From the NCBI GenBank assembly GCA_947647555.1, contig CANSKT010000003.1:7987-71986 (forward strand): a DNA stretch of 64,000 nt, in the 5' to 3' direction. A model generated the notes under the pieces. The model was not told the DNA's origin, ran no database searches, and saw only the letters and a list, made by a program, of their open reading frames with translations. The translations under genes were made by a program, and so were the position numbers. Below are positions 35,228-50,475 of the stretch, piece by piece. The stretch's first letter is position 1; every line of letters starts with the position of its first letter. The DNA is from an uncultured Peptococcaceae bacterium (lineage in GTDB: Bacteria > Bacillota > Dehalobacteriia > UBA4068 > UBA4997).

Positions 35228-35839
35228 TTATTCCGCCTGCACGCTCAAAAATGGAATATGCGCAATTTCATCATAGCCCACTTCAATCTGCGCATCACGC
35301 AAATCCTGCAAACGAACATAATTAAATCCCTGCTTTTCAATAGCCTGCACATTTTTCAAAACGCCGTTCAGGCGAATTTTAAGCTGCTTTTCCAATTCTT
35401 CCGCCTCCTCGCCAATTCCAGAATTATTATCATTCATAATACCCTTAGCAATAAACTGCAAAGGGTCAATCATTGAGGGATAACTATAACTGCCCTTATG
35501 TACCTCCAAATGCAAATGCCGGCCGGTCACATTCCCCGTAGCGCCCTCAATGCCCAAAACTGTATCTTCCTGCACCGTCTGGCCAACACGCACATAAACC
35601 GTGCGCAAATGCGCATAAAGCGTAATGTAGCCGTCCGCATGGCGCAAATAAACACAGTTACCATAACTGCCGCCATGGCTCACGCGCAACACCTCGCCGG
35701 CATACAAAGGATACACCAGACCGTCCCCACCAAAACTCATGGAAATAAAATCCTGGCCACTGTGCCAACCGGCCTTCCAAAAACGCCCTTTCGCGCCATA
35801 GCGCGTCCCCAGGCGATATTTATCAAAAGGATAACGCAT
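35228..35839 (-). CDS. M23-family metallopeptidase, putative lysin, with a C-terminal wall-binding-like segment
   Basis: 203-aa ORF with M23 motifs (GWHSGQDF, GRHLHLEVH). The C-terminal LKIRLNGVLKNVQAIEKQGFNYVRLQDL resembles a stalk (Cu-amine-oxidase N-like) repeat. It follows the holin. Confidence 0.8.
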   Translation of the reverse strand: MRYPFDKYRLGTRYGAKGRFWKAGWHSGQDFISMSFGGDGLVYPLYAGEVLRVSHGGSYGNCVYLRHADGYITLYAHLRTVYVRVGQTVQEDTVLGIEGATGNVTGRHLHLEVHKGSYSYPSMIDPLQFIAKGIMNDNNSGIGEEAEELEKQLKIRLNGVLKNVQAIEKQGFNYVRLQDLRDAQIEVGYDEIAHIPFLSVQAE

Positions 35840-35889
35840 TTTTCTCTCCTCTCGCTCCTGTCTATTTTTAATATTTAACTTTTTACAAT

Positions 35890-36120
35890 TTATTTGCCGC
35901 CCAGATAGCCGTCCGCCTGATTTTTGTCCAAATCAACAGCGGCATTATCTCTCTGAACATTTTTACCGAAAAAAAAGCCCAGAACCAGCATCACCGCGCT
36001 GCTAAAAAGTTCGCTGACCTCCCGGCCGCTCAAAGTCATAATACACAAAACCAGAACCAGCGCCAGCGTCACCAGACTTTTAACGTCCAAAAGCCGGGCC
36101 AGTTTTTGTAAAATCATCAT
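35890..36120 (-). CDS. Putative holin
   Basis: 76-aa ORF with two TM helices and a charged C-terminus, immediately upstream of the lysin. Confidence 0.6.
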   Translation of the reverse strand: MMILQKLARLLDVKSLVTLALVLVLCIMTLSGREVSELFSSAVMLVLGFFFGKNVQRDNAAVDLDKNQADGYLGGK

Positions 36121-36173
36121 TTAATGTCCTCCTCTATATTATATTCCTCTTATAGCGCAATGTCCCTCAAAGC

Positions 36174-37232
36174 TTAAACACAAAAACCCAAACTAATACC
36201 ATAAGTACCCTCGCAGCGATAAAAACCCGGCTGCAAAATATCCGGCTGCATCACTAAAAAATTTTCCTTGCCGTTCGGTCCGGAAATATTATTACGCAGC
36301 CAATAAATTGTAGATTTATTCGGCGTATGCCCACAGCGATAATATTCATACTGCTGCCCAAAACAATAATCATTAATTAGTCTGCTGTAACCGCAAAGTT
36401 CATAATCAGAAAAGAAAAACAGCTTTTCCTTGGTGGTCTTGCCAATATTATTACCCGTAACCGCCGTATATTTATTCACCTGCTTAATCACCGTGCGCAA
36501 GTCGCCCGGCATAGACTGCAAAATAGCCGGCAGCTGCACGGTTCGCATATTAGTCTGCTCCCAGGTATTAGCAAAATAAATATTTTCGTCCATAAAATAA
36601 TTGGCCGGCGTTGCTGATTTCATCTGAAAGGTAATACCAGCGCGCTCCTGTCCGGCCTTAGCCGCCGTCAACACATCATGCGCAAAACCGATAATCTGCA
36701 TATCATATGTGCCCAAACTGCTGCTAACGCTTTTAGTATCGCCCAGCGCATAAGCCTCCCTAGCCAGACCAGCCGCTGAAAGCTTGGCAATATAAGCCCA
36801 GGGAGAAGCCGCCAGCGTAGGCGCCGCCAAAACGCGCGTCTGACCAATATGCTCCAAACGTACCTCCCGGGAATAGGTCTTATTAGCATAAACATACATC
36901 ATCTGCCAGGTCCCCAGCGCGGAAACAGAAGCCGTCAGTTCCATAGTATCGCCCACCGTGCCGGAAAAAGAAAGCTGCCCCTGCTGTAACATAACCTGCG
37001 TATTAGGCGGCGCCCAAATTTCAAAAGAAATCAAACTCCGCTGCAACAACAAAGTAATATCTCTCTGCGCCTCCGTCATGCTGCCATTAAGCGTATCAGC
37101 CAAAGTTTTAGCCTGCTCGCCAATTTTAAGCTGTGTATCAATCTTATCCGCATTCTCATTAAAATCCTGAATATTATAATATTCCGAAGCCGCCGGTTTT
37201 TTCAATTTATAATTAGGCGTATAGGTTGCCAT
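36174..37232 (-). CDS. Tail fibre / receptor-binding protein
   Basis: 352-aa ORF. The N-terminus MATYTPNYKLKKPAASEYYNIQDFNENADKID is the conserved fibre-attachment motif of XkdV-like proteins. The C-terminus (KLFFFSDYEL...YWLRN...GISLGFCV) resembles DUF6273. Confidence 0.75.
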   Translation of the reverse strand: MATYTPNYKLKKPAASEYYNIQDFNENADKIDTQLKIGEQAKTLADTLNGSMTEAQRDITLLLQRSLISFEIWAPPNTQVMLQQGQLSFSGTVGDTMELTASVSALGTWQMMYVYANKTYSREVRLEHIGQTRVLAAPTLAASPWAYIAKLSAAGLAREAYALGDTKSVSSSLGTYDMQIIGFAHDVLTAAKAGQERAGITFQMKSATPANYFMDENIYFANTWEQTNMRTVQLPAILQSMPGDLRTVIKQVNKYTAVTGNNIGKTTKEKLFFFSDYELCGYSRLINDYCFGQQYEYYRCGHTPNKSTIYWLRNNISGPNGKENFLVMQPDILQPGFYRCEGTYGISLGFCV

Positions 37233-37774
37233 CAGTTCAACACCTCCTCTCTAATTTCCCGATGCCGCAGCGCCGCCAGCTGCTGATGCGTATAAACGGC
37301 AATCCGGCCATAGGTATTATATAAAAGCTGCAAATCCAGTTGCAAATTAGCCGGCAGAACACGCTGCAAAAGTTCGCGCAAAGCCGGCGCGCAGCCCTTT
37401 GCACTCAATTCCAGAAAAACATGCAACGTATAAGCCGCCGCGTCCAGCGTCAAAATATATTCGCCCTCCGGCAGACTGGCCGCCAAAAGTTCACGCAGCC
37501 GCGTCATGGTAAAAGGCAGTTGTTCATTCAAACGCAGCAAAACCGCATGCCGCCGCTCCGCCAAACTCAATGTTTCCCGGCCGGAAAGCTGCAAAAGCTT
37601 TTCCCAGCGCTCAATACCATATTCGCCGGCCTGCATAATCATCTGCTCAAGCAAAACCTGCTCCACATGCTGCCAGGCCAAAGTAAAATAAGGCTGCTCC
37701 ACCGTCAAAACCTGAGCCACGTCCTGAATTTGCAAAGCCACCGGCGGCAAATAACTGTCCAATTTATTCGCCAT
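37232..37774 (-). CDS. XkdU/YmfQ-like baseplate protein (DUF2313)
   Basis: 180-aa ORF (YLPPV...GIERWEKLLQL) positioned after the baseplate J gene. Confidence 0.7.
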   Translation of the reverse strand: MANKLDSYLPPVALQIQDVAQVLTVEQPYFTLAWQHVEQVLLEQMIMQAGEYGIERWEKLLQLSGRETLSLAERRHAVLLRLNEQLPFTMTRLRELLAASLPEGEYILTLDAAAYTLHVFLELSAKGCAPALRELLQRVLPANLQLDLQLLYNTYGRIAVYTHQQLAALRHREIREEVLN

Positions 37775-37777
37775 AAT

Positions 37778-38848
37778 TTATTGCACCACCACCTGACCCC
37801 TGACGGGAATTTCATCAGCCGCCAGCAACAAATTAGCCGCCCGGCCATTAAAAGTCAAACCGCTAACGTCCAAAACCCCATTTAACTGCAAAATACGCGC
37901 CTCCAGCTGACTGACGCGCACCGTCAAATAAGCGGCCGCGCCCCATTCAGCCGCCAAATCCGCAAAATACTCGTCTATACAACCGGCAACCGCCGCCTGC
38001 ACGTCCGCCAGCTGCCAGCCCTCGCGCAGACTAACCTGCAAACTGACCGCCACACTTTTCGCTTTAGCCGCCGCCACCGTAACCACATGACCAATCGGCG
38101 CCAGCCCCAACCCGGCGCCCTGCGTCGGCGGCGGGTCAAAAAGCATCTGCACACGCTGCACCAGCGCACTATCCGGCACGCCCAGTTTCTCATTCAACAG
38201 AATCAGTTTAACCGTACCGCCGCCCTGCCAGGCCGCCTGAACCTTAGCCGCACCCACGCCGGCAATGCCCTCGGCCTTATTTACATAATCCGCCACATTG
38301 CCGCCAAAACTCTGCTCCAACAAATCTTTTAAATAACGCGCCCGAAAAGCCTCGGTACTTTCCTCGTCCTCGCCCGGTACCAAAATGCGCTCCAACTCGG
38401 CCTTGCTTAAACCGTTCAGATATTCCAGCGGCACCATATGACCAATATAAGCGTTAGGCTGGCTGCCAGCCTGCTCACATTCCAACTCATAAAAATTATC
38501 GTCCAGCTTATCCACCACACGCCAATTAAAACGGTCGCAGCAAAAACGCGTACCCAGCGGAACCTGCGCGCCAGAAGCCAGTTCAATCCGCCCCAAAGCC
38601 CGGGCGGCGCTGGCCGCACGCGGCGCAAGCCCCCTCTCGCTGGCGCGCAGCACCAGATAAGGCCGGGAAGCCGTATCCGCAAACCCCTCCTGCAAAACCT
38701 GCTCCAAACCCCGGTAAAGTTGCGCCAACTCCCAGGCCGCCGGAGCCAGCGCGTCCCAAATCAGACTGCCCTCGCGCTTATCCACCGGGCTGTTAACCTG
38801 TTTCAGCATATCCGCCAGAATTTTCTCATATGTCATACTCTCATACAT
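37778..38848 (-). CDS. Baseplate J-like protein (XkdT)
   Basis: The start MYESMTYEKILADML (ATG 38848) follows AAGGGGG; the ORF track extends to 38905. The sequence is baseplate_J-like and sits between XkdS- and XkdU-like genes. Confidence 0.8.
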   Translation of the reverse strand: MYESMTYEKILADMLKQVNSPVDKREGSLIWDALAPAAWELAQLYRGLEQVLQEGFADTASRPYLVLRASERGLAPRAASAARALGRIELASGAQVPLGTRFCCDRFNWRVVDKLDDNFYELECEQAGSQPNAYIGHMVPLEYLNGLSKAELERILVPGEDEESTEAFRARYLKDLLEQSFGGNVADYVNKAEGIAGVGAAKVQAAWQGGGTVKLILLNEKLGVPDSALVQRVQMLFDPPPTQGAGLGLAPIGHVVTVAAAKAKSVAVSLQVSLREGWQLADVQAAVAGCIDEYFADLAAEWGAAAYLTVRVSQLEARILQLNGVLDVSGLTFNGRAANLLLAADEIPVRGQVVVQ

Positions 38849-38926
38849 TTCCAGTTTACCCCCTTTCGCCGTCAGCCCTCCCCGGCAAACCAACAGCAAT
38901 ATCAAATCACCGCTCTGCTCAGGCTT

Positions 38927-39292
38927 TTATAACAAGACCTCCGTTTCCAACGCCAATTCTCCATAGATGCTTTTCACCACAAAACGGCAGGCCAAACGAC
39001 TGCCCTGCTGCTTAAACTTAAAATCCTCAACCGCCAAAATGCGCTCATCACGCAGCAAAGCCTCGCGCAGCCGCCTTTCCGCCTCCGGTATCACATAAGC
39101 CGAGGGCCGACCAAAAAGACCGGCCAACTCAACCCCATAATCCCCGGAATAAACCGGCCAACGGCCAGCCTCGGTCTGCAAAAGCAGAAAAACCGCCTGC
39201 CGCAGCGCCTCCAAACCGTCAGTCATACCGCGCAGCACACAGCCACGGCCGGAAAGGTTGCTCATGGCATAGGTTCTGGTTTCCTCCGTCAT
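38927..39292 (-). CDS. XkdS-like baseplate protein (DUF2634)
   Basis: 121-aa ORF with the pattern GLEALRQAVFLLLQTEAGRWPVYSGDYGVEL. Confidence 0.7.
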   Translation of the reverse strand: MTEETRTYAMSNLSGRGCVLRGMTDGLEALRQAVFLLLQTEAGRWPVYSGDYGVELAGLFGRPSAYVIPEAERRLREALLRDERILAVEDFKFKQQGSRLACRFVVKSIYGELALETEVLL

Positions 39293-39331
39293 CGGCCATC
39301 TCCCCTTTTCAGCGCTTCAGCCCCTTGCCGC

Positions 39332-39799
39332 TTACATGCCAGCCAAATCATTAAATTTCTCCGGAATTTCAAAATCTTCAAAGGTAAAACGCATTTCTTC
39401 CTCCAAATATTCGTCATCAGCGCTGAACTTGGCCAAAACGCCGCCGTCCAGATTGCAGTCTTTCAAAATAACTGTCTGCCGGCCCACGCTGCTCACCGGG
39501 TCTTCATTGGTAATCTGGATATCAAAATACATATCCTCGCCGCTTTCCTTAAAGCGATACAACAGCTCCCGAAAAATAGAACTGTTATAATGAAAAGTCG
39601 CCTTGCCAGAGCCGCTCCAGCTAACCCCCTTATTGCCGCGCCCCACGCGTCCCAAAACCGGAACCTGCATTTTCTTCTTCTCAATGCTGGCCTCCAGATT
39701 AATAGCCTGCATAAATTTATAACGCCGCCCGTCCAGCGTCACATAACATTCCGCCAGCCCGGCGCTTAAAGCGTCCCAGGCGTTCATAGTTGTTGCCAT
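39332..39799 (-). CDS. Contractile-tail tube protein (XkdM-like)
   Basis: 155-aa ORF directly after the sheath gene, with XkdM-like motifs (VLGRVGRGNKGVSWSGSGKATFHYNSS, DIQITNEDP). Confidence 0.82.
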   Translation of the reverse strand: MATTMNAWDALSAGLAECYVTLDGRRYKFMQAINLEASIEKKKMQVPVLGRVGRGNKGVSWSGSGKATFHYNSSIFRELLYRFKESGEDMYFDIQITNEDPVSSVGRQTVILKDCNLDGGVLAKFSADDEYLEEEMRFTFEDFEIPEKFNDLAGM

Positions 39800-39817
39800 A
39801 TCCTAAAATCCCCCTTT

Positions 39818-41125
39818 TTAAGCAAAAGTAACCGTTAAATACAGCTGCGACATCGCATTTGTCACGTTTAAATAAACACCGATAACCACCGATTTTTTAT
39901 TCTCGCCCGGAGCCACCGTAACATCAGCCGTATCAAAACTTTCAATAGCACGCAGTCCCTCCAGCTTGCGGAAATAAGCCACCACATCGCCCCAAAGACT
40001 GATACGCCCGGCGTTATCATTCGGCACAATACCCAAATAACGCTGATAAAACAAACCAGATAAATCCAAAACAATCTGGTCCAAAACGCGAATAGTCTGA
40101 TTAAAACGCCGGTCCTCCTGACCGCTTTCCTGCCAGCCCTGCAAAGAGTTAACGTCCTCTAAAACGCGCAGTTCACCATGCAGACGGTGCAAAACCAAAC
40201 GCCCGGCCAACAATGCCTGCTGTAACTCACGCTGTCCGCTCAAAGCAGCAACCTTAATCTCGCCGTCATAAACCGCATTAGTCAGCGTAGCATTAACCGC
40301 ACAGCCAGCCTCCGCGCCCAAAAGCCAATAAACGCTGGCGCTGGCCGCCAAACCCTCCTCCTGCGCCGGATAGCCAACAGAAATCACGCCCTCATAATTG
40401 GCCGCAAAATCATAAAGCACCGTCTGGAATTTGCGGCCATTCTCCTCGCGCTGCTCCCGTGTATATTTCAGCAAAAGCGTCTTAACCGCATTATCCATGC
40501 TCAAACAGCCCAAAACATTAAATTCATATTCTCCCAGCAAATCCAGCATCTTCTGATATTCTTCAGAAGCCACCGCCGCCTTATTAGTACCGCCGGTCAG
40601 CTGCAAATAACTGCCGTCCGTCAATTCCGCGCCGCTTTTCCAGCAGACAAAATCATTATCCTGCAAGTCGACCGCGCTGGCCACCTGCTGGCTGTCCACT
40701 TCCTGCCCGGCCAAAAAAGTCAAAACCACAAAACCGTTCTCGGCCTCCGGGTCAGCGTCCACCTTAATCACCAAAGCATTGCCTCGCTCGCCGCTATATT
40801 TCGCCTCGCATAAAGCGCAACTCGCTTTAACGCCGCTATTTAAGCGATAAAAATAACAGCTGCCGGCATGCAAAAACAAATCGCGCAAACCTTTCAATGC
40901 ATCTTCGCCATAAGCATACCCAAACAGACCCTGAGCGCGCGTGCGGAACTCCCCGGCGTCCAGATAAAAAACCTCGCCGTCCGGCCCCCAGTCCAACTCC
41001 AAACCCAAAGCCGCCACGCCGCGGTCAGAAAGATTAGAACCAACCCGACCCTGCTGGTTAACATTAACATAAACACCCGGCAAAATTTTATTTTGCGTCA
41101 CAAAACTGCCGCCACCAAATGACAT
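39818..41125 (-). CDS. Contractile-tail sheath protein (XkdK-like)
   Basis: 435-aa ORF. The N-terminus SFVTQNKILPGVYVNV is typical of phage sheath proteins. Confidence 0.88.
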   Translation of the reverse strand: MSFGGGSFVTQNKILPGVYVNVNQQGRVGSNLSDRGVAALGLELDWGPDGEVFYLDAGEFRTRAQGLFGYAYGEDALKGLRDLFLHAGSCYFYRLNSGVKASCALCEAKYSGERGNALVIKVDADPEAENGFVVLTFLAGQEVDSQQVASAVDLQDNDFVCWKSGAELTDGSYLQLTGGTNKAAVASEEYQKMLDLLGEYEFNVLGCLSMDNAVKTLLLKYTREQREENGRKFQTVLYDFAANYEGVISVGYPAQEEGLAASASVYWLLGAEAGCAVNATLTNAVYDGEIKVAALSGQRELQQALLAGRLVLHRLHGELRVLEDVNSLQGWQESGQEDRRFNQTIRVLDQIVLDLSGLFYQRYLGIVPNDNAGRISLWGDVVAYFRKLEGLRAIESFDTADVTVAPGENKKSVVIGVYLNVTNAMSQLYLTVTFA

Positions 41126-41141: not shown

Positions 41142-41663
41142 TTATTTTTCAATTTTTTTATTAATATCCGCCGCCATATCATCAAGCGGCCCAATAGCCA
41201 AAAACTGCATTAAATCAGCGCCCTCCGGCGGCAGACTCAATTTATCGGCCGCCTCCAATTCCAGCGTCGTATAATAAACATATTTGGCCTGAAAACACAA
41301 ATACTCATTGCCGGCCTGCCAGTGCAAATCATGCCCCCGATAAGCGCGCAGCCGGCCGCACAATTCCGCCATACCACGCACAAGCCCCTCGCCAATGCGT
41401 TCCTGTTCCGCCAAACCGCTCCATGCACCGTTCGGCTTTTCAGCCGCCGCCTTAGACGGCCGGGGATAATAATGCAAAGTCAAATCCATCTCCCGGCGCA
41501 CCCGTCCACAGGGCCAAAGCTGACGACGCAGCGCCGGCGGCGGTAAATAAAAGCAGGGCGTTCGCTCGCCCTGCAAAAGCCGGCCAAAATAAACCGGCCC
41601 CACCTCGCCGCCCGGAAAAAGCTGGCGCAGCTTAGTCGCCGCCGCCCACAAAAAATCCTGCAA
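41142..41663 (-). CDS. Head-tail joining / tail-completion protein (XkdJ-position), function inferred by position
   Basis: 173-aa ORF with a TTG start 9 nt after AAAGGGG, lying between the connector genes and the sheath. Confidence 0.5.
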   Translation of the reverse strand: MQDFLWAAATKLRQLFPGGEVGPVYFGRLLQGERTPCFYLPPPALRRQLWPCGRVRREMDLTLHYYPRPSKAAAEKPNGAWSGLAEQERIGEGLVRGMAELCGRLRAYRGHDLHWQAGNEYLCFQAKYVYYTTLELEAADKLSLPPEGADLMQFLAIGPLDDMAADINKKIEK

Positions 41664-41680: not shown

Positions 41681-42079
41681 TCAGGCGCGCTCGTCCAAAA
41701 GCCGCACCATAACCTCCATATGTGTCGGATAACAGGCCGCCTGTCCACTGCACGCCAACCAATAAACCTGCCCCCATTGCTCAACGCGCACCCGACTACC
41801 AGCCGGCAAGGTCAAACCCGGCTCGGCCGGCGGCAAAAACAGTTGAAAACGCGCCTCCACGCCGCTGCCGTCCGCCGCGCTGTCCGTTCTGGCCGGCTCA
41901 TTCTGACCAAAAGCCAAATAACAGGGCAAATCAGACCAGTCGGCCAACGGCTGCCAAAACTCGCCGCAGCAAACACCGGCCACTTCCTGAACCTGTAAAG
42001 CATAAACCGTGCAAACACCGACCAAAAGCTGGCGCAGCTGTTGCCGCGCCGCCGCATATGCAGCGTCCATTATCGTCAT
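41681..42079 (-). CDS. Head-tail adaptor (XkdH/I-position), function inferred by position
   Basis: The start is taken at MTIMDAAYAAARQQL (ATG 42079), downstream of AGGGGG. The ORF track extends to 42217, which would overlap the upstream gene by 116 nt. Confidence 0.5.
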   Translation of the reverse strand: MTIMDAAYAAARQQLRQLLVGVCTVYALQVQEVAGVCCGEFWQPLADWSDLPCYLAFGQNEPARTDSAADGSGVEARFQLFLPPAEPGLTLPAGSRVRVEQWGQVYWLACSGQAACYPTHMEVMVRLLDERA

Positions 42080-42101
42080 GTATGCCATACCCCCTATCTC
42101 G

Positions 42102-42533
42102 CTAATAAACAGAACGCCAGGCGCACAGCGCCGCCCTGGCGGAATGAAGCAAATCGGCCGCCAACCCCTCGGCACGGCTTTTTTCGTCAACACCACTCCT
42201 CTGGCTGCCGCCGCCAAAGCCCCAGGCCGCGTCCCCCAAACGTAGCGAGGTCAGGCTGGGCATAACCGCCAAACTTTCCGGTGCCAAAGCCAATCGAGAT
42301 TGCAAAAAATAAGCGGCGGCCAAATCCAAAAACGCAGAAACCAGCGGCAGTTCCGCCTTCTCCGCCTGCGGCAGACGATTACAAAACTGCTCCACAAAAG
42401 CAACCGCCCGGCTCAAAGCCAACTCAAGCGCCGCCTGCTCCAATCCGAACGCCGCTTCGTTGTCCTCCTCCGCAAACAGATAGCCCAAAGCCATCAAACG
42501 CCGGCGCAGTTCGTCCAAATCCGCTATCATCAT
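42102..42533 (-). CDS. gp6-like head-tail connector (YqbG/DUF3199-like)
   Basis: 143-aa ORF with an ATGA start-stop overlap with the capsid gene. Its helical acidic N-half is typical of connector proteins. Confidence 0.6.
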   Translation of the reverse strand: MMIADLDELRRRLMALGYLFAEEDNEAAFGLEQAALELALSRAVAFVEQFCNRLPQAEKAELPLVSAFLDLAAAYFLQSRLALAPESLAVMPSLTSLRLGDAAWGFGGGSQRSGVDEKSRAEGLAADLLHSARAALCAWRSVY

Positions 42534-43528
42534 ACCTGCTCACTGCCGGCATTAACGCCGCCCGTCGCCAAACCGGTAATCGAAGCATGCAAAAAGGCCG
42601 GGCCATGCGCCAAACCAATCTGACCATAAAGCTGAATTTTATCCGCCGCGCCGGTTTTCGCCAATTCTTCCTCAAACAAAACACCCTTGCCCGGCACCGC
42701 CTGAAAAACCGGAGCCAAATGCGCCACATCGGCAATCAGCACACTATCCGCCGGCATAAAGCGATCCCAACAAACCCCCAGCCGGCAAAAATCCGTTTCC
42801 AGTTCGGTAATATTCAGACCGCCCACCTGACGCTGGCTGGGCGTATAAACCGGCGTGCCGTTAAACTGCGAAGCATAAATTTCTGATAAAGCCTGCTTCT
42901 GATAGGCCGGCAAAAACATCACCATGTTGCTGAAATAAGCGCCATTATCCGCCATTTCGCGGAAAATCTGCTGCAACATGGCCTTGCTCAAAGGCGCGCC
43001 CTTAGCGTCCAGCGTCGTGCCGCCGCGGCAAAGTTCCAGCAGCCCCCGAGTCTTATTGGCCTCGTTGCTGCTGGCCGCGCGCTTAAACTGGCCGTTAATA
43101 AAACTGTGCTCAACATCACGGGCAATTTTAATCAGCTTATGCTGTACCTGAAAAGCCCTCTCGTCCGCCACCGGGTCGCCCTCCAAACCGGCCGTGTTCA
43201 AACCCTGCATACGTCCCACATTGCTTTGCTTGGCATAAGTCAAATTAATAATCTCCTGATGAATTTGCACAACATTACTCTCCTGCGAGCGCGCCGCCAT
43301 AACCGCCTCCGGAGCCACCGCAGCCGCCGATTCAGAAATTTCCGGTTGGGCCGCCTCCGGATAATCAAAAAGCACCGCCGTCGGAAATTCAAAATTGCTG
43401 GTCATACGTCCGCCGGAAAGCCCACCAATCATCGCCAAAAGCGGAGTCTGCATCGCGTCCGCAGAAAAAAGTTCGCCGGCATAATTAGGCAAATTCCAAA
43501 CCGTTCCCATCTCACTTACTTGTGTCAT
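42530..43528 (-). CDS. Major capsid protein
   Basis: 332-aa ORF after the scaffold gene. The N-terminal WNLPNYAGELF...TPLLAMIGG pattern is seen in HK97-fold capsid families. Confidence 0.8.
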   Translation of the reverse strand: MTQVSEMGTVWNLPNYAGELFSADAMQTPLLAMIGGLSGGRMTSNFEFPTAVLFDYPEAAQPEISESAAAVAPEAVMAARSQESNVVQIHQEIINLTYAKQSNVGRMQGLNTAGLEGDPVADERAFQVQHKLIKIARDVEHSFINGQFKRAASSNEANKTRGLLELCRGGTTLDAKGAPLSKAMLQQIFREMADNGAYFSNMVMFLPAYQKQALSEIYASQFNGTPVYTPSQRQVGGLNITELETDFCRLGVCWDRFMPADSVLIADVAHLAPVFQAVPGKGVLFEEELAKTGAADKIQLYGQIGLAHGPAFLHASITGLATGGVNAGSEQV

Positions 43529-43588: not shown

Positions 43589-44029
43589 TTATAAGATAAT
43601 TCCCTGTGCAGCCGCTTCCTGCTTAATCTTAATCGCCTCAACGCCCTCGGCCTGCGCCAAACGCAGACCAAAAGCGCCGTCCGCACCATAAACATCAGTC
43701 ATATCGCCGGCCGCCTGCGGCTGCAAACCCAGCCAATGATAATCCTGCTCCTGCCGTTCCGGCGCAAACAAAAAAGCGGTGTCCGAACGCCGACGCAGTT
43801 CCCGAATTTGCTGCCGCAGACGCTCCGCCCAATCCGCCGCCTGAAAATCCAAAACCGACCAATCCAGCAAGGCCATAGCCGCTGGCAAACTTCTAGCGCC
43901 AGCCTCGGCCAACAAACGCTCCGCCGTCATTTCCAGCTTCAAGCGCTCATACTCCGCCCGGCTCACCATCTCCGGCTTATTTTCAACCGCATTTTCGGCT
44001 TTATTTTTTCGCTCATTTTCCTGCATATT
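43589..44029 (-). CDS. Capsid scaffolding protein (DUF4355-like)
   Basis: The start MQENERKNKAEN (ATG 44029) follows AAGGAGGG; the ORF track extends to 44089. It is a charged coiled-coil protein upstream of the capsid gene. Confidence 0.7.
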   Translation of the reverse strand, partial: NMQENERKNKAENAVENKPEMVSRAEYERLKLEMTAERLLAEAGARSLPAAMALLDWSVLDFQAADWAERLRQQIRELRRRSDTAFLFAPERQEQDYHWLGLQPQAAGDMTDVYGADGAFGLRLAQAEGVEAIKIKQEAAAQGIIL

Positions 44030-44042: not shown

Positions 44043-44207
44043 TTAACTATTTTGCTGCAAAATTTCCATTTCCCGTTGCAGGCCGGCAATCACAAAGGCA
44101 CGCTCGGCGGCGCTCAACTGCATAAATTCGCCAGGCCGCCAACCCCAGCGCAAAAGCGCCAGCCAGGCGGCGCATACCTCCCAATCGCCGGCCTTAATCA
44201 GTTTTTT
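44043..44207 (-). other. -1 programmed frameshift site (A AAA AAC) and 52-codon extension of the tail chaperone
   Basis: The minus strand reads GCA AAA AAC TGA at 44209-44198. The -1 frame stays open from 44201 to a TAA at 44045-44043, encoding LIKAGDWEVCAAWLALLRWGWRPGEFMQLSAAERAFVIAGLQREMEILQQNS. Confidence 0.55.
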
Positions 44208-44605
44208 GCTGCCGCCAAATGAGCCTCCGCCGTCCGGCTCTGCAAATTCAAGCGTTCAAAAGCCTGCTGCAAAGCCTGATACTCCCCCGGTGAAAGCATT
44301 TTCAACAGCAGCTGTTCCGCACCCAAAACGCCATAACTGTCCTGCAACTCAACACTGTTCAAATCCGGCCAAACCACAGATTTTACCAACAACTGCAAAA
44401 AAATATCGTTAAAGCGAACCTTATGCCCAATTTCCTCCTGCCGCGCCGCCGCCAGTAAAAGTTCCTGCCAGTCGGCCGCCGTCAGCGGCTGCAACTCCCA
44501 AAGCTGCGGCTGCCCCTGCTCGTCCACAAAACGCTCAGAAACCAGCAGGCGCAAATTCTCGCGCGGCGTACTGGCCGCCAAAAAAGCCGTCAAATCCCTG
44601 CTCAT
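44198..44605 (-). CDS. Tail assembly chaperone (XkdN-like)
   Basis: 135-aa ORF. SERFVDEQGQPQLWELQPLT and VVWPDLNSVELQDSYGVLGAEQLLLKML match the XkdN family pattern. Confidence 0.8.
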   Translation of the reverse strand: MSRDLTAFLAASTPRENLRLLVSERFVDEQGQPQLWELQPLTAADWQELLLAAARQEEIGHKVRFNDIFLQLLVKSVVWPDLNSVELQDSYGVLGAEQLLLKMLSPGEYQALQQAFERLNLQSRTAEAHLAAAKN

Positions 44606-44641: not shown

Positions 44642-45556
44642 TCAAACCAAAGACGCGCTTCCCAACAAAGCCTCAATATCTTCACGCAAGCGCTCCGCCA
44701 CCAAATCGGTCAGCATATCAACATCAGCCCCGGCCGCCAACGGTTCCGGCTCCACACCGGGTATCTTCAAAACCTCCGAGCGCGCAGATGTCAAATGCGC
44801 TGGTATGTTTGCCGATATTTCCGTCAGCATTTCCGACGATGCATCTGCCGCCGTCAGCGGCTGCATCGGCTCATTTTCAGCCGATTTAACCAAATCGGTG
44901 GAAAAAATTGGCTCCGGCCATAACGAGGAAACAATATTTTCCCCTGCCGTTTCAACTTTGTCTGCTGCTTCAGCCTGATTATTTATTTTCTCTTTTGGCT
45001 TAACAGCCGATTTTATCTTTACTTCCGATTTACGCCCCATACCCGATTTACTTTTTGTTTCTGCCCCTCTGTGCGCCTTTCGCCCAGACAAAGCTAAAGA
45101 AAGCACTGCCGCATCATCTTGAGCAAACAAATCCTCCGGCCATATTGCGTCAGGAGAATCCAAATCCGGTAATAATTCCGCACCAACCTCGCTTAAATCA
45201 GCCGCTGTGCTTTTCCATAAATTATCCCTTTCCTCCTGAAGCGCCCTCTCCGTACTGTTTAACATTGGCGCAGTTGAGGTTAAACGACGCTTGCCGCGCT
45301 GATATAAATTATTAAAACGCTGGCTCACCACAGCCGCAGAATAGCCATTTGCCTGCACCAAAGGCGAATTTATACCCAATAACAAGCGAAGATCCCGTTC
45401 ACTCGGCCGCTCTCCCGGGGCGGCCTCGTTCACCAGTCGGAGCAAATTCGCGCCGGCCAGCTGACCCCAACTGTCAAACGCCGCCGCCTGCCGCTGCCAT
45501 ACACGCCCCTGCTGTAAGCGCGCCAGCCATTCACTCAAAAAACTTTCCCCATTCAT
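44642..45556 (-). CDS. Low-complexity protein of unknown role (possible very short tape-measure substitute)
   Basis: About 304 aa from the ATG at 45556; the ORF track starts at 45568. It has an Ala/Leu-rich N-part, a Lys-rich middle (KSKSGMGRKSEVKIKSAVKPKEK) and an acidic C-part. I recognise no family. Confidence 0.5.
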   Translation of the reverse strand: MNGESFLSEWLARLQQGRVWQRQAAAFDSWGQLAGANLLRLVNEAAPGERPSERDLRLLLGINSPLVQANGYSAAVVSQRFNNLYQRGKRRLTSTAPMLNSTERALQEERDNLWKSTAADLSEVGAELLPDLDSPDAIWPEDLFAQDDAAVLSLALSGRKAHRGAETKSKSGMGRKSEVKIKSAVKPKEKINNQAEAADKVETAGENIVSSLWPEPIFSTDLVKSAENEPMQPLTAADASSEMLTEISANIPAHLTSARSEVLKIPGVEPEPLAAGADVDMLTDLVAERLREDIEALLGSASLV

Positions 45557-45564
45557 ATCCGACC

Positions 45565-45930
45565 TCACACCTCGTCCAATTCCGTTGCATAATAACGGCT
45601 AACAATCACATAAGCCTGCCCACCCTGAACACAGGCCAACAAAACGCGGTCATTCAATTCCAAATTATGATAGACCCGATAAATTTTATCTTTTAAATAA
45701 CGCTCATCGTCCTGCCGCCGCTCCACAAAACCAATCACCGAGTCCGTCAAAATCAGTTCTTCCTCCGGCACCAAAAGCCGCTGCTCCAGCATAATCTGCA
45801 AAGGACTTTCATTCACAACTCGCCCAAAGGCAAAGCTGACTGCCGGCAGACTGTCCGCCGCCCGTTTGGCCAAACCAATCAGCGCGTCTGTCAAAGCTGC
45901 TGTCTGCAAAATTTTTCCCCCTCTCGCCAA
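45565..45930 (-). CDS. XkdR-like protein (DUF2577)
   Basis: SPLQIMLEQRLLVPEEELILTDSV and DRVLLACVQGGQAYVIVSR match the DUF2577 pattern. The true start is possibly TTG 45909, after GAGGGGG. Confidence 0.7.
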   Translation of the reverse strand: MARGGKILQTAALTDALIGLAKRAADSLPAVSFAFGRVVNESPLQIMLEQRLLVPEEELILTDSVIGFVERRQDDERYLKDKIYRVYHNLELNDRVLLACVQGGQAYVIVSRYYATELDEV

Positions 45931-45936
45931 CAGGTT

Positions 45937-46383
45937 TTATAAATTACCAACATATTTCTGACAAACTTTCTCCACATATTCGCGCAAACGCAAAGCCACG
46001 CGCACATCAAAGCCCAAATCGGCCGCTTCCAAAACCTGATAATCCTCCAAACTCACCAGCATACTGGTATTAAAAATCTCCTCGCCATTCGGCAGAGAGC
46101 GATAAATAATCAGCCGCCGCGCCTCACCGCTGGCCGCCCATTCCGCCAGCCGATTTAAATAATAAATTGGTTTATAAACGCGCACCCCATTGCGCAGCAG
46201 CGGCGAGTCCTCAAAATAAGGCAGCAGCAACTCAAAACTGATTTCGCGCAAACCGGCCGGCCGCAAAAGGTTCAACTCGGTGCCGTCCGCCAGCTGCACC
46301 AGCTGATTATTCTGGCGCAACCGCAGCGTATATTTTTCCGGCGCCAGCGGCAACTCCAGCTCGCCAATAAAATAATGATACAT
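45937..46383 (-). CDS. XkdP-like protein lacking the LysM domain
   Basis: 148-aa ORF. ELELPLAPEKY...LNLLRPAGLREISFELLLP...VSLEDYQVLE resembles the non-LysM domain of XkdP-type proteins. Confidence 0.55.
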   Translation of the reverse strand: MYHYFIGELELPLAPEKYTLRLRQNNQLVQLADGTELNLLRPAGLREISFELLLPYFEDSPLLRNGVRVYKPIYYLNRLAEWAASGEARRLIIYRSLPNGEEIFNTSMLVSLEDYQVLEAADLGFDVRVALRLREYVEKVCQKYVGNL

Positions 46384-46453
46384 CTTTCACCCCTCCCTGA
46401 ATTCTATATATATGCCAATCATTCCAATTAGAACGCCCCAAACAGGCACAGCA

Positions 46454-47401
46454 CTACTGTAATTCCAAACTTAAATTCATCAAACAATTTCCCTGTTCAA
46501 TCAGATGCTCCGCCCGCTTAACCAGCGCCCAGCAATCAACCAACTGCTCGCCCAGATTTAAACGCACGCCCACCATACTGCCGCCGCGCACCATAATATT
46601 GCCCGGAGCCTGCAAAACCAGCAGACTTTCCTGCCGCTGACGATACAGCTGTAAAAGTTCCTGCGCCCGGCTATAAGTCTGCTGTTTAGCGTCCGCGTTT
46701 TTGCTTACCAGCTGCAAAACGCCCCAATCGGCAATTTTGCCGCCGTCCTCGGCCACAAACTCCTTGCGCAGCCCCTTGCGCTTATCCTCATAAATTACCT
46801 TAACCCGATTATAGGTCTTTTCATCAATCGAGGTAGCATATTCATAGCCGCCAATACAATCCGCCGCCAACAGAATATTAACGCGCATATCCCAGCAGCT
46901 TTGCAGACAAACCGCACCACAATCATCATAAACAAAATAACGCCGCCCCTTGGCCTGCCAGACCTCGGCCAAAACCTCCGCCAGCATATCCAGATACCTG
47001 CGGTTATCAAAACTATGCGCCGCCAAACGCAGTCCACAATCCGCCACCTTACCCAGCTGCATATTATTCTCACTGCAAATACGCCGCAGCAAATCACCCG
47101 GCGTAAAATCGCGCAGCATGCAGCAATCACGGTTCTGCAAATAACGCAGCTGGTCATAAGCGCGCACCTGAATAAGTTCCGGCTGCCGCCGTCGCTTGCT
47201 AAAAACCCGGCCGACAAAAACCGTCTGTCCGTCCAGACGCAAACGCACCGGCGCGCCCTCCAAAAAGTTCAACATGCCGTTTTTAACCACCACAAAATCC
47301 AAAACAGCCGCCGCATTAGCCGCGCGCTGCAAACGCAAACCGCTCAAAACCTGCGGCCGCAGCCAGTTCTTGCCGTCATAAATCAACAAATCAACCTGCA
47401 T
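46454..47401 (-). CDS. XkdQ/YqbQ-like baseplate hub (gpD-like) protein
   Basis: The start MQVDLLIYDGKNW (ATG 47401) follows GGAGG and overlaps the portal stop. AYDQLRYL, FVYDD, SIDEKTYNRVKV, WGVLQL and VRGGS are XkdQ-like motifs. Confidence 0.8.
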   Translation of the reverse strand: MQVDLLIYDGKNWLRPQVLSGLRLQRAANAAAVLDFVVVKNGMLNFLEGAPVRLRLDGQTVFVGRVFSKRRRQPELIQVRAYDQLRYLQNRDCCMLRDFTPGDLLRRICSENNMQLGKVADCGLRLAAHSFDNRRYLDMLAEVLAEVWQAKGRRYFVYDDCGAVCLQSCWDMRVNILLAADCIGGYEYATSIDEKTYNRVKVIYEDKRKGLRKEFVAEDGGKIADWGVLQLVSKNADAKQQTYSRAQELLQLYRQRQESLLVLQAPGNIMVRGGSMVGVRLNLGEQLVDCWALVKRAEHLIEQGNCLMNLSLELQ

Positions 47402-48854
47402 GCCGAGCCTCCTGCACCGCCAGCCGTCGCATCTCATTTTCCACATCATTCACCCAGGGGTGCTGCGCAATAACCGATTTTTCAGAAAGTAAACCAACCG
47501 ACTTCAAACAATTATCAATAGCCTCACTTTCATCAATCATAATATCGCGGTTAAAAATCAGCCGCCAACCACAAGAAAGAAAATCACCCTGACCACTAAG
47601 CGCCAGATACCGCTTAACAAACCAAAGCAATTCGGCAAAACTGGCCTGCCATTCCGTTTCCAAATCGTTAGCGTCCAGACAAATATCGCTATACATAGAT
47701 TTAATATTCATCTCATTCGCTGCCCGATAAGCCCGGTCAAGCTTGGAATCAAACCCCAAACCATTCTCGATAATCGCGCGCTGCAAAAGTTCCAAAATAG
47801 CCTGATAATTGCCGGCGTTCACATCAACAGAAAGCGTATCAATACCACCCTCCGCGCCGTCAATCGTCTTAACCTTAACCGCACCATAAGCAGCCAGATT
47901 ATGCCGAAACTCGGCCAAATCCGTGCCGTCATAATTCTTAATCACCAAAACCGTATTATGCATATCCTCCTGCATAACATTTTCAAAAGCAGAAAGCATG
48001 GTGTTAAGCGCGTCCTGCAAAGATTTCACCCGACAAATAAGCGGCCGCTCACTCTCATTCAGCTTAAAAGGAATAAGCGGCACGCGCTGCCAGTTAAAGC
48101 CCAAAACGCTCCCGTCCGCACTCACGCGCTGCAAATACGGTCTGGCCTGCCCCAGGGACAATTCAGCCTCGCCCCAGGCCCAGGGTATCAACCGCCCCAA
48201 CCCCGGCTCCCAACCAAACAGGCGCACGCCATTCAAACCATAAACCTCCACGCCCCAAACCGTCTGTAAACGCCCCTGCCGCCAGATTTCCCGGCCAAAA
48301 AAGCGCAGCGCCCCAGTCAGGCGTGTATGTTCAGCATCTGCCCAAAAGGGCAAAATCTCATGCCCGGCAAACCGGGCAAAAGCCAGCCGCCCCTCCCCGT
48401 CAAGATATGGATAAAGCCAGGCAATTCCCTGATTATAACAGTCCTTGCCCAACCGCTTCAGCAACCGCATAAAAGGCCGGTCAAAAATCCGCCCCAAAGC
48501 GTCGGCAAACTCCGAGCAATCACTCTCCCAACTGATAGGCTGCCCCAGCATGTAATTGGTTTTCTGATTAACCAGCTTGGCATACTGATTGTTAATCAGG
48601 CGATTATTCGGCAAATTAGGCGCCGGCTCAAGCTGACCGCCGCGCCCAATCACCATGCGCCGCTGACGCAGAATATCCTGCTGCCCGGCAAAATAAGCCT
48701 CCCCGGTCAACATCTGCCGGCGCTTGTCAGAGGTCAGCCAACGCCCCAACTCCCAGCCCAAAACCTGCAATTCCGCTGGCTGCTCGGGTTTCTCGCCCAA
48801 CAAAAAACCGCCGGCTGAACCCAGCCTGCGGCAAATCTCGCTAATCTTTTTCAT
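47391..48854 (-). CDS. Portal protein (SPP1 Gp6-like)
   Basis: 487-aa ORF. LTSDKRRQMLTGEAYFAGQQDI and NNRLINNQYAKLVNQKTNYMLGQPI follow the SPP1-family portal pattern. Confidence 0.88.
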   Translation of the reverse strand: MKKISEICRRLGSAGGFLLGEKPEQPAELQVLGWELGRWLTSDKRRQMLTGEAYFAGQQDILRQRRMVIGRGGQLEPAPNLPNNRLINNQYAKLVNQKTNYMLGQPISWESDCSEFADALGRIFDRPFMRLLKRLGKDCYNQGIAWLYPYLDGEGRLAFARFAGHEILPFWADAEHTRLTGALRFFGREIWRQGRLQTVWGVEVYGLNGVRLFGWEPGLGRLIPWAWGEAELSLGQARPYLQRVSADGSVLGFNWQRVPLIPFKLNESERPLICRVKSLQDALNTMLSAFENVMQEDMHNTVLVIKNYDGTDLAEFRHNLAAYGAVKVKTIDGAEGGIDTLSVDVNAGNYQAILELLQRAIIENGLGFDSKLDRAYRAANEMNIKSMYSDICLDANDLETEWQASFAELLWFVKRYLALSGQGDFLSCGWRLIFNRDIMIDESEAIDNCLKSVGLLSEKSVIAQHPWVNDVENEMRRLAVQEARHAG

Positions 48855-48885
48855 TTATTTTTTCTTTCCCCCCTGTTTAGCTTTC

Positions 48886-48920
48886 TTGACGATACTATTC
48901 TAACACACAACAACCGGACA
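48886..48920 (-). promoter_or_regulatory. Copy A of a conserved 35-nt element (extended -10-like TGTTAGAAT) upstream of the portal gene
   Basis: 29 of 35 positions are identical to 50514-50548. The minus strand reads TGTCCGGTTGTTGTGTGTTAGAATAGTATCGTCAA. Confidence 0.5.
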
Positions 48921-48945
48921 TTCCATGACATCTTTTCCCCAACGC

Positions 48946-50205
48946 CTAACTAAAGCTAAAACTATCTCGCAGCAACAAATCTTCCGCCGCATAACGCATC
49001 GCGTCCATCAAATGATTATTACAATCCGCCGGCACATTCAGCAACCGGCCATTTTTATCTGCCTGCCAGTTATAAGCGCTGATTTCCGCCAAAAAATTCC
49101 GGCAGCGCGGAGCCACCAGAATTTCAAAATCCTGTAAAAAATCAATACCATGCCGCACGCTGTCCGGCCCCTTACGCGCCGGTTTAATCCGCTCAATACC
49201 AAGCTCGCGCAGCCGGTCAATGCTCTTCGGCTCGGCGCTATCCGCGCAAATTCGCTCCTTGGCATACCCCCTGCGCTCAATTTCCGCATAAATCTGCTCA
49301 TTACTAAGCCCACGCTGATAAATTTCATCAAAAACAAAAATACGCCGCGCAGCCAAATCCACCAGACCGCAAAACAGCGCCGTTTCATCATTCACATAAC
49401 CAAAATCCAAACCAAAAATACTGCACATCTGCGGTTGAGCACGCAAAGCAGACAAATCAAAATCCACCTCGCGCCAGTTCTCAAAAATCAGCCCTTCCGC
49501 CACGCCCCATTCCCCCAAACCGGCCACCCGATAACGCCGGGGGTTCTGGCGCGCCATGTTAACAAAAACCTGCCGATCAGCCTCGTCCAAAAACTCATTG
49601 CAGCGATAATCCACCGTCTTAGCCAGAATATCCGGGCAGGCCGGGCCGTCAAAAAAACGCCGCTTCAGCCAGTGTCGCTCATTCCAGGGATTAAAGGTCA
49701 GCGTCAGCTGCTTAAAAGGAGCTGGCCCACGAATACTTTCGTCCAAAATTGCAAAATCTTCTTCCCGGCTTACTTCAAAAGCCTCCTCCAGCCAAAGAAA
49801 ACAAAGCTGCCCCTGCGGCGCCACAATAGATGTAATTTTGTGTGGGTCGTCCAAACCCCGAAAAAAAATCTTCTGCCCCGTCGGCAGATAAGTCATCTCC
49901 AAAGGATCCTCCCGCAGCTGCCAAACAGTGCTCAAACCCAACTGCTGCACCGCCCAGACAAGTTCCGCATAACAGGAATTGCGCAAAGAACGATACGTCC
50001 TGCGCACCACCAACAAATTGGTCTGCGGTATATGTACCAAACGCCAGATAAAATTCAAAGCCGTTGTTTTCGATTTTTTACTGGCCCTGCCCCCCTTAAC
50101 AACCCGATAGCGTCCGGTAAAATGCCAAAAATCCCGATAACCACCGCCCACCAAATGCGGTAAATAAATATCCTGCAAATCTCCAACCCCTCCTTTCCCA
50201 GGCAT
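48946..50205 (-). CDS. Terminase large subunit (PBSX/XtmB type)
   Basis: 419-aa ORF with a Walker A-like KGGRASKKSKT, followed by terminase ATPase and nuclease regions. Confidence 0.9.
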   Translation of the reverse strand: MPGKGGVGDLQDIYLPHLVGGGYRDFWHFTGRYRVVKGGRASKKSKTTALNFIWRLVHIPQTNLLVVRRTYRSLRNSCYAELVWAVQQLGLSTVWQLREDPLEMTYLPTGQKIFFRGLDDPHKITSIVAPQGQLCFLWLEEAFEVSREEDFAILDESIRGPAPFKQLTLTFNPWNERHWLKRRFFDGPACPDILAKTVDYRCNEFLDEADRQVFVNMARQNPRRYRVAGLGEWGVAEGLIFENWREVDFDLSALRAQPQMCSIFGLDFGYVNDETALFCGLVDLAARRIFVFDEIYQRGLSNEQIYAEIERRGYAKERICADSAEPKSIDRLRELGIERIKPARKGPDSVRHGIDFLQDFEILVAPRCRNFLAEISAYNWQADKNGRLLNVPADCNNHLMDAMRYAAEDLLLRDSFSFS

Positions 50206-50208
50206 CTC

Positions 50209-50475
50209 TCAATCCGTCAAATCGTCCTCGCCCCAAATCCGCACCGCCAAAGTCTTGCCCGTATTCTGCGCCTTATCAGAAAAAAGGTGTTGGCTGCGCC
50301 CCAAAAGTTCCGCCGCCTTAGTGCGCTCGCTAACTTTCGGCCCGTCCAACCGAACCTGAACTTCGCCGCCCTTTTGCGTTTCATGCCGGTCATGCACCTC
50401 GCCGCGCATCACCTCGGTTAAAAACTGCATAATTTCGGTTTTACAGGCCACCGCTCGCCGCTTTTTCTCAACCAT
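50209..50475 (-). CDS. Truncated small terminase subunit (oligomerisation core only)
   Basis: 88-aa ORF with a good RBS (GGAAAGGAGA). EIMQFLTEVMRGEV...RTKAAELLGRSQHLFSDK matches the central and C-terminal part of Terminase_2-type TerS. No N-terminal HTH is encoded. Confidence 0.7.
   Translation of the reverse strand: MVEKKRRAVACKTEIMQFLTEVMRGEVHDRHETQKGGEVQVRLDGPKVSERTKAAELLGRSQHLFSDKAQNTGKTLAVRIWGEDDLTD

Follow-up and report, generated by a model that had tools for sequence, protein, structure and literature searches.

A chromosomally fixed, reduced contractile-tail gene cluster of gut Clostridia as a candidate host-owned DNA-packaging particle

The PBSX element spans about 28 kb, carries its own regulators, Xre and Xpf, follows the canonical gene order of its phage type and has a tape-measure protein, XkdO, of roughly 1300 aa; RcGTA, the gene transfer agent (GTA) of Rhodobacter capsulatus, has a non-contractile, siphovirus-type tail and keeps its lysis and accessory genes at separate loci. 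A recent study calls GTAs multi-locus systems and describes just two GTAs or GTA-like systems of Gram-positive bacteria, PBSX and the FpGTA of Faecalibacterium; particles of FpGTA and their 8.4-8.9-kb packaged DNA have been shown experimentally, and a small terminase (TerS) without its DNA-binding domain is reported for both RcGTA and FpGTA (PMC12946183). Abundant GTA-like packaging of host DNA is also recorded in gut Oscillospiraceae, Christensenellaceae and others, without identified gene clusters (PMC12946183; bioRxiv 10.64898/2026.07.08.737213), and one of these two reports puts forward a candidate of 14 kb plus 3.6 kb from Coprocola. Solventogenic clostridia are known to harbour domesticated R-type prophages and tailocins (PMC10538166). 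Here we analyse a block of 21 co-oriented phage open reading frames (ORFs) that occupies 15.2 kb, positions 35228-50475 of the minus strand, in a 64-kb stretch of DNA (the window) from an uncultured Peptococcaceae bacterium (contig CANSKT010000003.1, positions 7,987 to 71,986).

An earlier reading of the letters alone (the sequence-only reading) had proposed that these tightly packed genes encode a domesticated particle. All 21 ORFs were found where that reading had placed them, intact, with intergenic gaps of no more than about 110 nt. Our preferred interpretation, to which we give a probability of about 0.72, is that the block descends from a PBSX-type myovirus prophage and is now fixed in the chromosome, owned by the host and reduced to a single operon that would specify a DNA-packaging particle; the proposal of domestication draws support from the locus, from selection, from the absence of att sites and mobility genes, and from the absence of the element from viral contigs.

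A scan of one genome per species placed the cluster in nine species-level metagenome-assembled genomes (MAGs; L001-L009), and two more genomes with the same arrangement, L084 and L085, were reached through RluD homologues. The nine carry the NCBI labels Bacillota or Peptococcaceae and include Candidatus Avidehalobacter gallistercoris (whose genus we take to belong to the GTDB class Dehalobacteriia). All eleven group-A genomes were assembled independently, from the guts of mouse, goat, rabbit and chicken, and share a permuted order of the 21 genes and the flank DUF5665-lspA-rluD-rarA; the proposed comparison of loci across related genomes thus finds the cluster at lspA-rluD-rarA in at least ten species-level genomes. 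The nearest outgroup, with an RluD 61% identical, has DUF5665-lspA-rluD...rarA without phage genes, and more distant relatives retain lspA-rluD with no phage genes there. Protein distances of the element (eight genes) and of the flank (three genes) run closely parallel over 28 genome pairs (r = 0.984, Mantel p about 2e-4, slope 1.19). Taken together with the selection estimates and the searches of viral and phage collections below, these comparisons indicate a single acquisition, then vertical descent under selection.

Selection was estimated by the pairwise Nei-Gojobori method (NG86) on concatenated cluster and flank genes, omega being the ratio of nonsynonymous to synonymous divergence (dS):

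Window and L001: cluster omega 0.116, dS 0.148; flank omega 0.024, dS 0.185.
Window and L003: cluster omega 0.164, dS 0.90; flank omega 0.114, dS 0.84.
Window and L002: cluster omega 0.215, dS 1.08; flank omega 0.109, dS 0.96.

The purifying selection looked for is therefore present, at a cluster omega of 0.12-0.22 and a synonymous divergence equal to that of the flanks. Every cluster gene is constrained: tightest are those for the tube, capsid, XkdP-like protein, sheath, portal and large terminase (TerL), with capsid, portal and TerL at omega 0.03-0.14, and loosest are g15 and the putative fibre gene. Disrupted ORFs, which the sequence-only reading would have taken as a sign of decay, were absent across the sampled genomes save for a split sheath gene in the L005 MAG.

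No group-A relative was found among 2.9 million IMG/VR viral contigs, where the best portal match (53%) lies in ordinary 37-44-kb phage contigs, and no close relative among 50,697 phage records, in which capsid matches reach at most 38% (actinophages) and portal matches at most 48%. Because selection, flank co-divergence and absence from viral and phage collections coincide, we take these sequence comparisons to exclude an active prophage and simple decay.

Profile searches detected no integrase, recombinase or replication gene in the cluster or across the 64-kb window, and no helix-turn-helix (HTH) or sigma domain among the cluster ORFs or in their immediate flanks, in agreement with the earlier statement that mobility, repressor and replication genes are missing inside and beside the block. 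The longest direct repeat shared by the borders is 11 nt, within the range given by shuffled flanks (mean 9.4, maximum 13); flanking repeats, reported absent before, are thus no more than chance would supply, and with a locus fixed across species the picture is not that of a strain-specific insertion with att sites. No tRNA lies near the cluster, the only one in the window being tRNA-Pro at 19.4 kb (19364-19440), and an Rfam search of 34-52 kb gave no match. The host-like composition formerly judged by eye is borne out by computation: GC is 0.521 in the cluster and 0.512 in host genes, GC at third codon positions 0.574 and 0.573, and relative synonymous codon usage correlates at r = 0.87. Profile matches likewise agree with the flanks as first described and now give them as DUF5665, lspA, rluD and rarA/mgsA on one side, and on the other a 57-aa ORF, CotF and then bioA (TIGR00508, 481 bits; cutoff 405). 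The remainder of the window is housekeeping: uvrAC, a glycolysis operon, transporters, two-component systems, ilvC, ispDF, greA and lysS.

The features of the element are listed in order of transcription, with the longest-ORF start replaced where a true start probably lies downstream of it, as is likely for several genes:

50525..50557, minus strand: promoter-like element upstream of TerS, GTCCTG..TGTCCG-N9-TGcTAGAAT.
50209..50475, minus strand: small terminase TerS (g21), 88 aa, N-terminal HTH DNA-binding domain missing; partial family matches and alignment.
48946..50205, minus strand: large terminase TerL (g20), PBSX family; Terminase_3 (E 2e-50) and Terminase_3C, TIGR01547 165 bits, cutoff 105.
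47391..48854, minus strand: portal (g19), SPP1 Gp6-like; PF05133, E 4.5e-63, full-length.
46454..47401, minus strand: baseplate hub (g18), YqbQ/XkdQ-like, likely start 47401 (longest ORF 47449); PF24032, E 1.2e-70.
45937..46383, minus strand: XkdP-like baseplate protein (g17) without LysM; PHROG 380/5184.
45565..45930, minus strand: XkdR-like protein (g16, DUF2577), putative spike or hub component; PF10844, E 1.4e-15.
44642..45556, minus strand: g15, acidic, low-complexity, 304 aa, proposed tape-measure remnant; slot directly upstream of the tail chaperone.
44043..44605, minus strand: XkdN-like tail assembly chaperone (g14, 44198-44605) with its -1 frameshift extension; PF08890, E 2e-20.
43589..44029, minus strand: scaffolding protein (g13), likely ATG at 44029; weak match to PF06810 (E 0.0015), with the capsid gene next in line.
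42530..43528, minus strand: major capsid protein (g12), SU10/DUF5309 type; PF17236, E 1.2e-57.
42102..42533, minus strand: head-tail connector candidate (g11); weak match to the PHROG 442 adaptor, syntenic in relatives.
41681..42088, minus strand: head-tail adaptor (g10), likely start 42088; PHROG 615, E 1.4e-8, L001 orthologue 135 aa.
41142..41663, minus strand: tail terminator (g9); PF20765, E 5e-5 (at threshold), L084 orthologue annotated alike.
39818..41125, minus strand: contractile tail sheath (g8); four sheath domains, PF17482, PF04984, PF17481 and PF22671.
39332..39799, minus strand: tail tube (g7); PF09393 (DUF2001), E 9e-48, 79-100% identity across group A.
38927..39292, minus strand: sheath initiator (g6), gp25/XkdS-like; PF10934, E 1e-24.
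37778..38848, minus strand: baseplate J/XkdT-like protein (g5), likely ATG at 38848; PF04865, E 1e-48.
37232..37774, minus strand: baseplate Mu gp48/XkdU-like protein (g4); PF10076, E 4e-22.
36174..37232, minus strand: putative tail fibre or receptor-binding protein (g3); position after the baseplate genes, L084 orthologue with DUF6273.
35890..36120, minus strand: putative holin (g2), 76 aa, two hydrophobic segments; PHROG 13256 (unknown function), E 4e-13, just before the lysin.
35228..35839, minus strand: M23 peptidoglycan endopeptidase (g1), putative endolysin; PF01551, E 4e-20.

Most gene identities proposed from the letters stand on profile matches, those of the fibre and the holin on position, size and hydrophobic segments only. 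That list had passed over the frameshift-extended chaperone, the XkdP-like gene and the tape-measure remnant, and the gene order proves not to be canonical; its comparison of size with PBSX understated how derived the element is in its gene order, shrunken tape measure and truncated TerS. TerL shows ATPase and nuclease motifs in its translation; the L084 homologue of g13 has a precomputed Phage_scaffold match; the capsid protein, with 1743 homologues found, is among the tightest genes at omega 0.03-0.12. Among structural genes whose homologues can be recognised, that of the putative fibre diverges most (34-66% identity, omega 0.25-0.32), and the M23 gene ends the cluster in every complete group-A locus.

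In PBSX and related prophages the canonical order is head genes, sheath, tube, XkdN, tape measure and XkdP-Q-R-S-T-U. In the window the genes Q-P-R-g15-N stand between portal and scaffold, the XkdQ-like gene directly after the portal gene and so placed in all of L001-L009, and S-T-U follow directly on the tube. An assembly artefact is rejected as the source of this order, which more than ten independent assemblies have in common.

Neighbour-joining on TerL, portal, capsid and sheath, without bootstrap, makes group A the sister of a second reduced lineage, group B, with a third, group D, branching next and most canonical prophages outside. Group B comprises at least 11 species, Clostridia or Oscillospiraceae MAGs (L010-L014, L017, L018, L021, L042, L068, L078); it keeps the canonical order (e.g. 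L014:5476-20669), but has only about 155 nt between the XkdN chaperone and XkdP genes, which just fits the frameshift extension and leaves the tape-measure slot empty. Its tape-measure remnant, acidic, of 211-308 aa and with a tape-measure C-terminus, is encoded between TerL and portal. Within 2-6 kb upstream of the group-B TerS there are host genes, and no integrase was found there; the neighbours are NMT1/ABC-spoIIAB-sigF-DUF6062 (L014, L021), spo0A (L012) or MerR regulator and flavodoxin genes (L017). Group D, from termite-gut Oscillospiraceae (L015, L025, L038, L066; e.g. L015:2149-20800), has a third order, capsid, chaperone, tape measure of 216-336 aa, baseplate, fibre, terminator and sheath; here the tape measure also keeps its N-terminus and stands in the canonical slot. 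L015 has a TerS of 82 aa, and its TerL and portal genes are separated by two inserted genes, for 977 and 212 aa; L038 has rluD and lspA on the other strand, a few kb upstream. By these comparisons the window element is one among several related, reduced and differently reshuffled elements.

Reduction is plain in TerS. The window protein matches its families weakly and in their C-terminal part only (Pfam Terminase_2, 55-138 of 141; PHROG 51, 144-229 of 261), and in alignment it covers the C-terminal part of full-length relatives, the N-terminal domain being gone. It is nevertheless constrained despite this truncation (omega 0.09-0.28). Sampled canonical prophages with the same TerS type keep the N-terminal domain; sequence comparison shows independent losses in the window clade, in group-B L017 and L021, and in group-D L015. 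At the group-A locus L009:650-1057 TerL comes straight after the conserved promoter motif, with no TerS ORF or tblastn match, which suggests that TerS was lost entirely or relocated. Elsewhere in the cluster the XkdP-like protein, for which groups B, C and D have homologues of 209-240 aa, that of L014 with a C-terminal LysM, is by this comparison a form that has lost its LysM domain; the large minor-head gene that follows the portal gene in canonical relatives, together with some small connector genes, was not found in the window cluster.

The cluster has no long tape measure. No cluster ORF exceeds 487 aa, and the sole candidate for a tape measure is the 304-aa g15, which matches nothing in Pfam or PHROG and retrieves only relatives at least 75% identical in homologue searches. 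All group-A loci encode a counterpart of 259-340 aa in the same slot, acidic and of low complexity, with a conserved C-terminal helix motif, VD[LIV]D..L..VAERL..IE..L.S; g15 is also the fastest-evolving gene of the cluster (omega 0.45). The short counterparts of groups B and D have extreme C-termini that match, at significance, the C-termini of canonical tape measures of 697-939 aa (hhalign probability 95%, E 2e-8; hmmsearch over 5545 ORFs, E 7e-6 to 1e-3), and the C-terminal part of group-A g15 aligns in turn with the group-B counterpart (hhalign probability 72%, P 3e-5). On this evidence g15 is likely to be a miniaturised tape measure. An AlphaFold2 model built on a shallow alignment gave no confident fold (pLDDT, the predicted local distance difference test, 34).

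The chaperone gene has a slippery site, A_AAA_AAC, at 44207-44201 and the stop of the extension at 44045-44043; the shifted frame encodes GGSKKLIKAGDWEV..., and groups A, B and C retain this extension of 57 residues. Conservation of this programmed -1 frameshift argues that the chaperone-client system is still operating. In L008 (7310-7795) the gap between the g15 homologue and the chaperone gene is widened and filled by tandem, coding-like units of about 39 aa (LSEVERTAEVADW...).

The upstream end carries a promoter-like element composed of an extended -10 and a conserved upstream block, with the consensus GTGGAATGTCC, 9-11 nt, TGnTAnAAT among relatives. It is kept before TerS or TerL in 8 group-A loci, even where the upstream neighbour differs (cotF, D-glutamate cyclase genes or an EamA-like gene, according to subclade), and in L006 and L008 it comes after the terminator of the preceding host gene; we infer that it functions as a promoter. 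The motif has 0 matches elsewhere in the window, and no regulon was apparent in the window or the loci, between which its spacing varies. Divergent from the TerS promoter region, at 50641-50814 (plus strand), lies the 57-aa ORF, absent from the original ORF list, with its own ribosome-binding site directly upstream of cotF; it is kept in L001-L004, and with cotF makes up the coat gene pair of the sequence-only reading.

Were the block to work as we envisage, the conserved promoter would drive the operon, presumably under a host factor encoded elsewhere. Portal, scaffold and the SU10-type capsid protein would form procapsids, which TerL and a TerS without its DNA-recognition domain would fill by the headful with little or no sequence preference. 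A baseplate would be built from the XkdQ hub, XkdP without LysM, XkdR, the gp25-like initiator, J, gp48 and the fibre; the roughly 300-aa tape-measure remnant would act with the chaperone and the product of its frameshift to nucleate a short tube and sheath, to be capped by the terminator, and the adaptors would connect head with tail. The small holin and the M23 endopeptidase would free the particles by lysis of the producer, and at a target cell these could either deliver DNA to kin, as a GTA, or puncture the membrane in a PBSX-like killing. Gene transfer and killing would each be compatible with a particle that has given up LysM, the minor head protein and most of its tape measure. A DNA-carrying role seems to us the likelier, since the genes for capsid, portal and terminase rank with the most strongly constrained; the same constraint suggests that a filled head matters, and so favours a PBSX-like or GTA-like particle over a tailocin.

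The alternative that survives best, which we nonetheless think unlikely, is domestication for killing, as in PBSX or phibacin: the tail would puncture related cells and the packaged DNA would be an undelivered by-product. PBSX itself, the closest characterised relative in tail genes and TerL family, packages 13-kb host DNA yet behaves as a bacteriocin (PMC7667829); two components usually required for passage of DNA across the envelope, the tape measure and LysM, are here reduced or lost, the large minor-head gene after the portal is absent, and the fibre evolves fast. Against this, the low omega of capsid, portal and TerL is hard to square with a dispensable head, the more awkwardly because headless R-type tailocins evolve readily, and the cluster has neither immunity nor regulator genes.

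An improbable alternative concerns control, namely that particle production is wired into sporulation, for instance for mother-cell lysis or DNA release, and not into an SOS or stationary-phase response. The head end does adjoin sporulation genes in three separate contexts: the cotF pair (window 50641-51091), spoIIAB-sigF-DUF6062 (L014:2902-4647, L021:3318-5230) and spo0A (L012:1151-1930). This adjacency may reflect a regulatory link or chance; it is not universal, failing in L006, L009 and L017, and the sample is small enough for chance to produce it. The conserved -10 resembles the extended sigma-A type and not that of sigma E, F, G or K, and a by-eye comparison with consensus sequences for sporulation sigma factors and the Spo0A box gave no convincing match. 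Between L014 and L021 DUF6062 is 90% identical, the adjoining sigma factor only 65%.

Very unlikely is a structural module of a still-mobile phage, or of a helper-dependent satellite, with its integration and replication genes elsewhere or missed. Our view is limited to 64 kb of the genome, which holds a single repressor-like gene; it encodes an Xre-type HTH protein of 238 aa, with an N-terminal Xre/Cro-type HTH and NCBIfam matches that all fall below cutoff, at 58655-59371 (plus strand), 8 kb from the cluster. Housekeeping genes separate the two, however, with ilvC, ispDF and a PIN/TRAM gene between them. The fixed locus and flank co-divergence across at least ten species, the empty outgroup site free of att scars and the absence from viral contig and phage collections speak in the same sense. 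Least credible of all is a cryptic remnant, functionless and slowly decaying, which would account for the missing lysogeny and replication genes and for the truncated TerS, tape measure and XkdP, but not for 21 intact ORFs at saturated synonymous sites (dS about 1) with omega 0.1-0.2, a conserved promoter and programmed frameshift, or continued constraint on truncated genes such as TerS.

Several points weigh against a host-owned DNA-packaging particle as the interpretation. A hidden Markov model of the group-A g15 C-terminus, run against the 5545 ORFs of all loci, retrieved only group A at significance, the best match beyond it being the group-B counterpart at E 0.6; because this direct comparison is not significant, the link from g15 to tape measures runs through an indirect chain by way of groups B and D, and is moderately supported. 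If its tape measure is this short and, to judge from the model, apparently disordered, a contractile tail may not assemble normally. DNA beyond the window may hold regulators and perhaps more structural genes. All genomes are MAGs, among them L005, in which the sheath gene lies in two overlapping ORFs (8395-9691), by assembly frameshift or as a pseudogene. Co-divergence was measured against host markers that have a physical linkage to the element.

If the interpretation holds, the locus is a concrete candidate, testable by sequence, for GTA-like packaging of the kind seen in gut Clostridia with unknown gene clusters, distinguished by its contractile tail, by a design pared down to a single operon and by clear evolutionary signs that the host owns it. 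We regard as tentative, and on balance doubtful, the wider proposal that groups A, B and D represent an old family of fixed, short-tailed contractile, DNA-filled particles that are true GTAs, perhaps connected with sporulation regulators, in spore-forming gut Clostridia of several orders, and that they could account for the orphan host-DNA packaging of Oscillospiraceae and Christensenellaceae. The locus also offers natural experiments in the losses that a myovirus particle can tolerate, here of LysM, of the DNA-binding domain of TerS and of the greater part of the tape measure, in lineages whose gene order has been reshuffled three different ways; both bear on tail-length control and on the usual conservation of phage gene order.

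Three further features of the window deserve record. A 141-aa membrane protein of the Phage_holin_4_2 family is encoded among housekeeping genes at 54206-54631 (minus strand), and is probably a host protein of YvlD type outside the element. Two adjacent ORFs of 244 and 190 aa with no Pfam match lie in a low-GC stretch (0.44) at 6362-7661 (minus strand), and another low-GC stretch (0.41), at 17000-20000, surrounds the tRNA-Pro gene between a hybrid histidine kinase and an ABC transporter.

The sequence-only reading knew of no such element in this kind of organism, and our literature searches likewise found no description of it or of any prophage-like particle in its clade. An intact temperate prophage would have an integrase, att sites, a repressor, a replication module and a variable position; none of these genes or sites was found in the 64-kb window, and the position of the element is fixed across species. 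Its nearest relatives of that kind are the canonical temperate myovirus prophages of gut Clostridia (L022, L031, L036, L044-L047, L064, L067, and IMG/VR contigs of 37-44 kb), which share homologous TerL (50-60%), portal (43-50%), capsid (49-69%), sheath, tube and baseplate proteins and a chaperone with the same frameshift; they differ in their canonical order, a tape measure of 697-939 aa, a large minor-head gene behind that of the portal, additional connector genes, an XkdP-like protein of greater length (240 aa in L036) and, where it is of the same type, a full-length TerS. R-type tailocins (diffocin and clostridial; PMC10538166, PMC4453579) resemble the element as domesticated contractile tails of Clostridia with XkdK/M-type sheath and tube, and unlike it lack capsid, portal and terminase genes; in the window TerS, TerL, portal, scaffold and capsid are all present, and capsid, portal and terminase highly constrained.

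With PBSX the element has in common a TerL of the PBSX family, XkdK/M sheath and tube, XkdN, XkdP/Q/R/S/T/U-type baseplate proteins and a lysis cassette (PMC7667829), as well as chromosomal fixation, want of self-propagation and a Gram-positive, spore-forming host. The TerL and contractile-tail families are thus those of PBSX; its canonical order, long tape measure and own regulators are not found. At 15.2 kb the window element has no regulator at the cluster, a tape-measure remnant of about 300 aa and a displaced Q-P-R-TMP-N block (TMP, tape-measure protein), and is further set apart by its SU10-type capsid, SPP1-type portal, M23 lysin and TerS without an N-terminal domain.

FpGTA, compared by description, is like it in coming from gut Bacillota, in its TerS without DNA-binding domain, its TerL, portal, scaffold and capsid, its lack of replication genes and its near-ubiquity in the host genus; it differs in being podovirus-like, without sheath or tube, and in its division into two operons, of 10.5 kb and 5.5 kb, with about 125 kb between them (Nat Commun 2026, PMC12946183). 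RcGTA differs in its Gram-negative hosts, in a sequence kinship limited to generic phage folds, and in that its DNA transfer is proven and that of the window element hypothetical; it resembles the element in its roughly 15-kb head-tail cluster without replication or integration genes, inherited vertically under purifying selection (PMC12946183, PMC5721377), its TerS without DNA-binding domain, and its host-controlled expression, presumed for the window element. Of the traits by which GTAs are recognised, the packaging of near-random host DNA in pieces smaller than the locus has at most indirect support, from the truncated TerS; two others are found here, namely fixation in the host chromosome with vertical inheritance and purifying selection, and a 64-kb neighbourhood clear of replication, integration and lysogeny genes.

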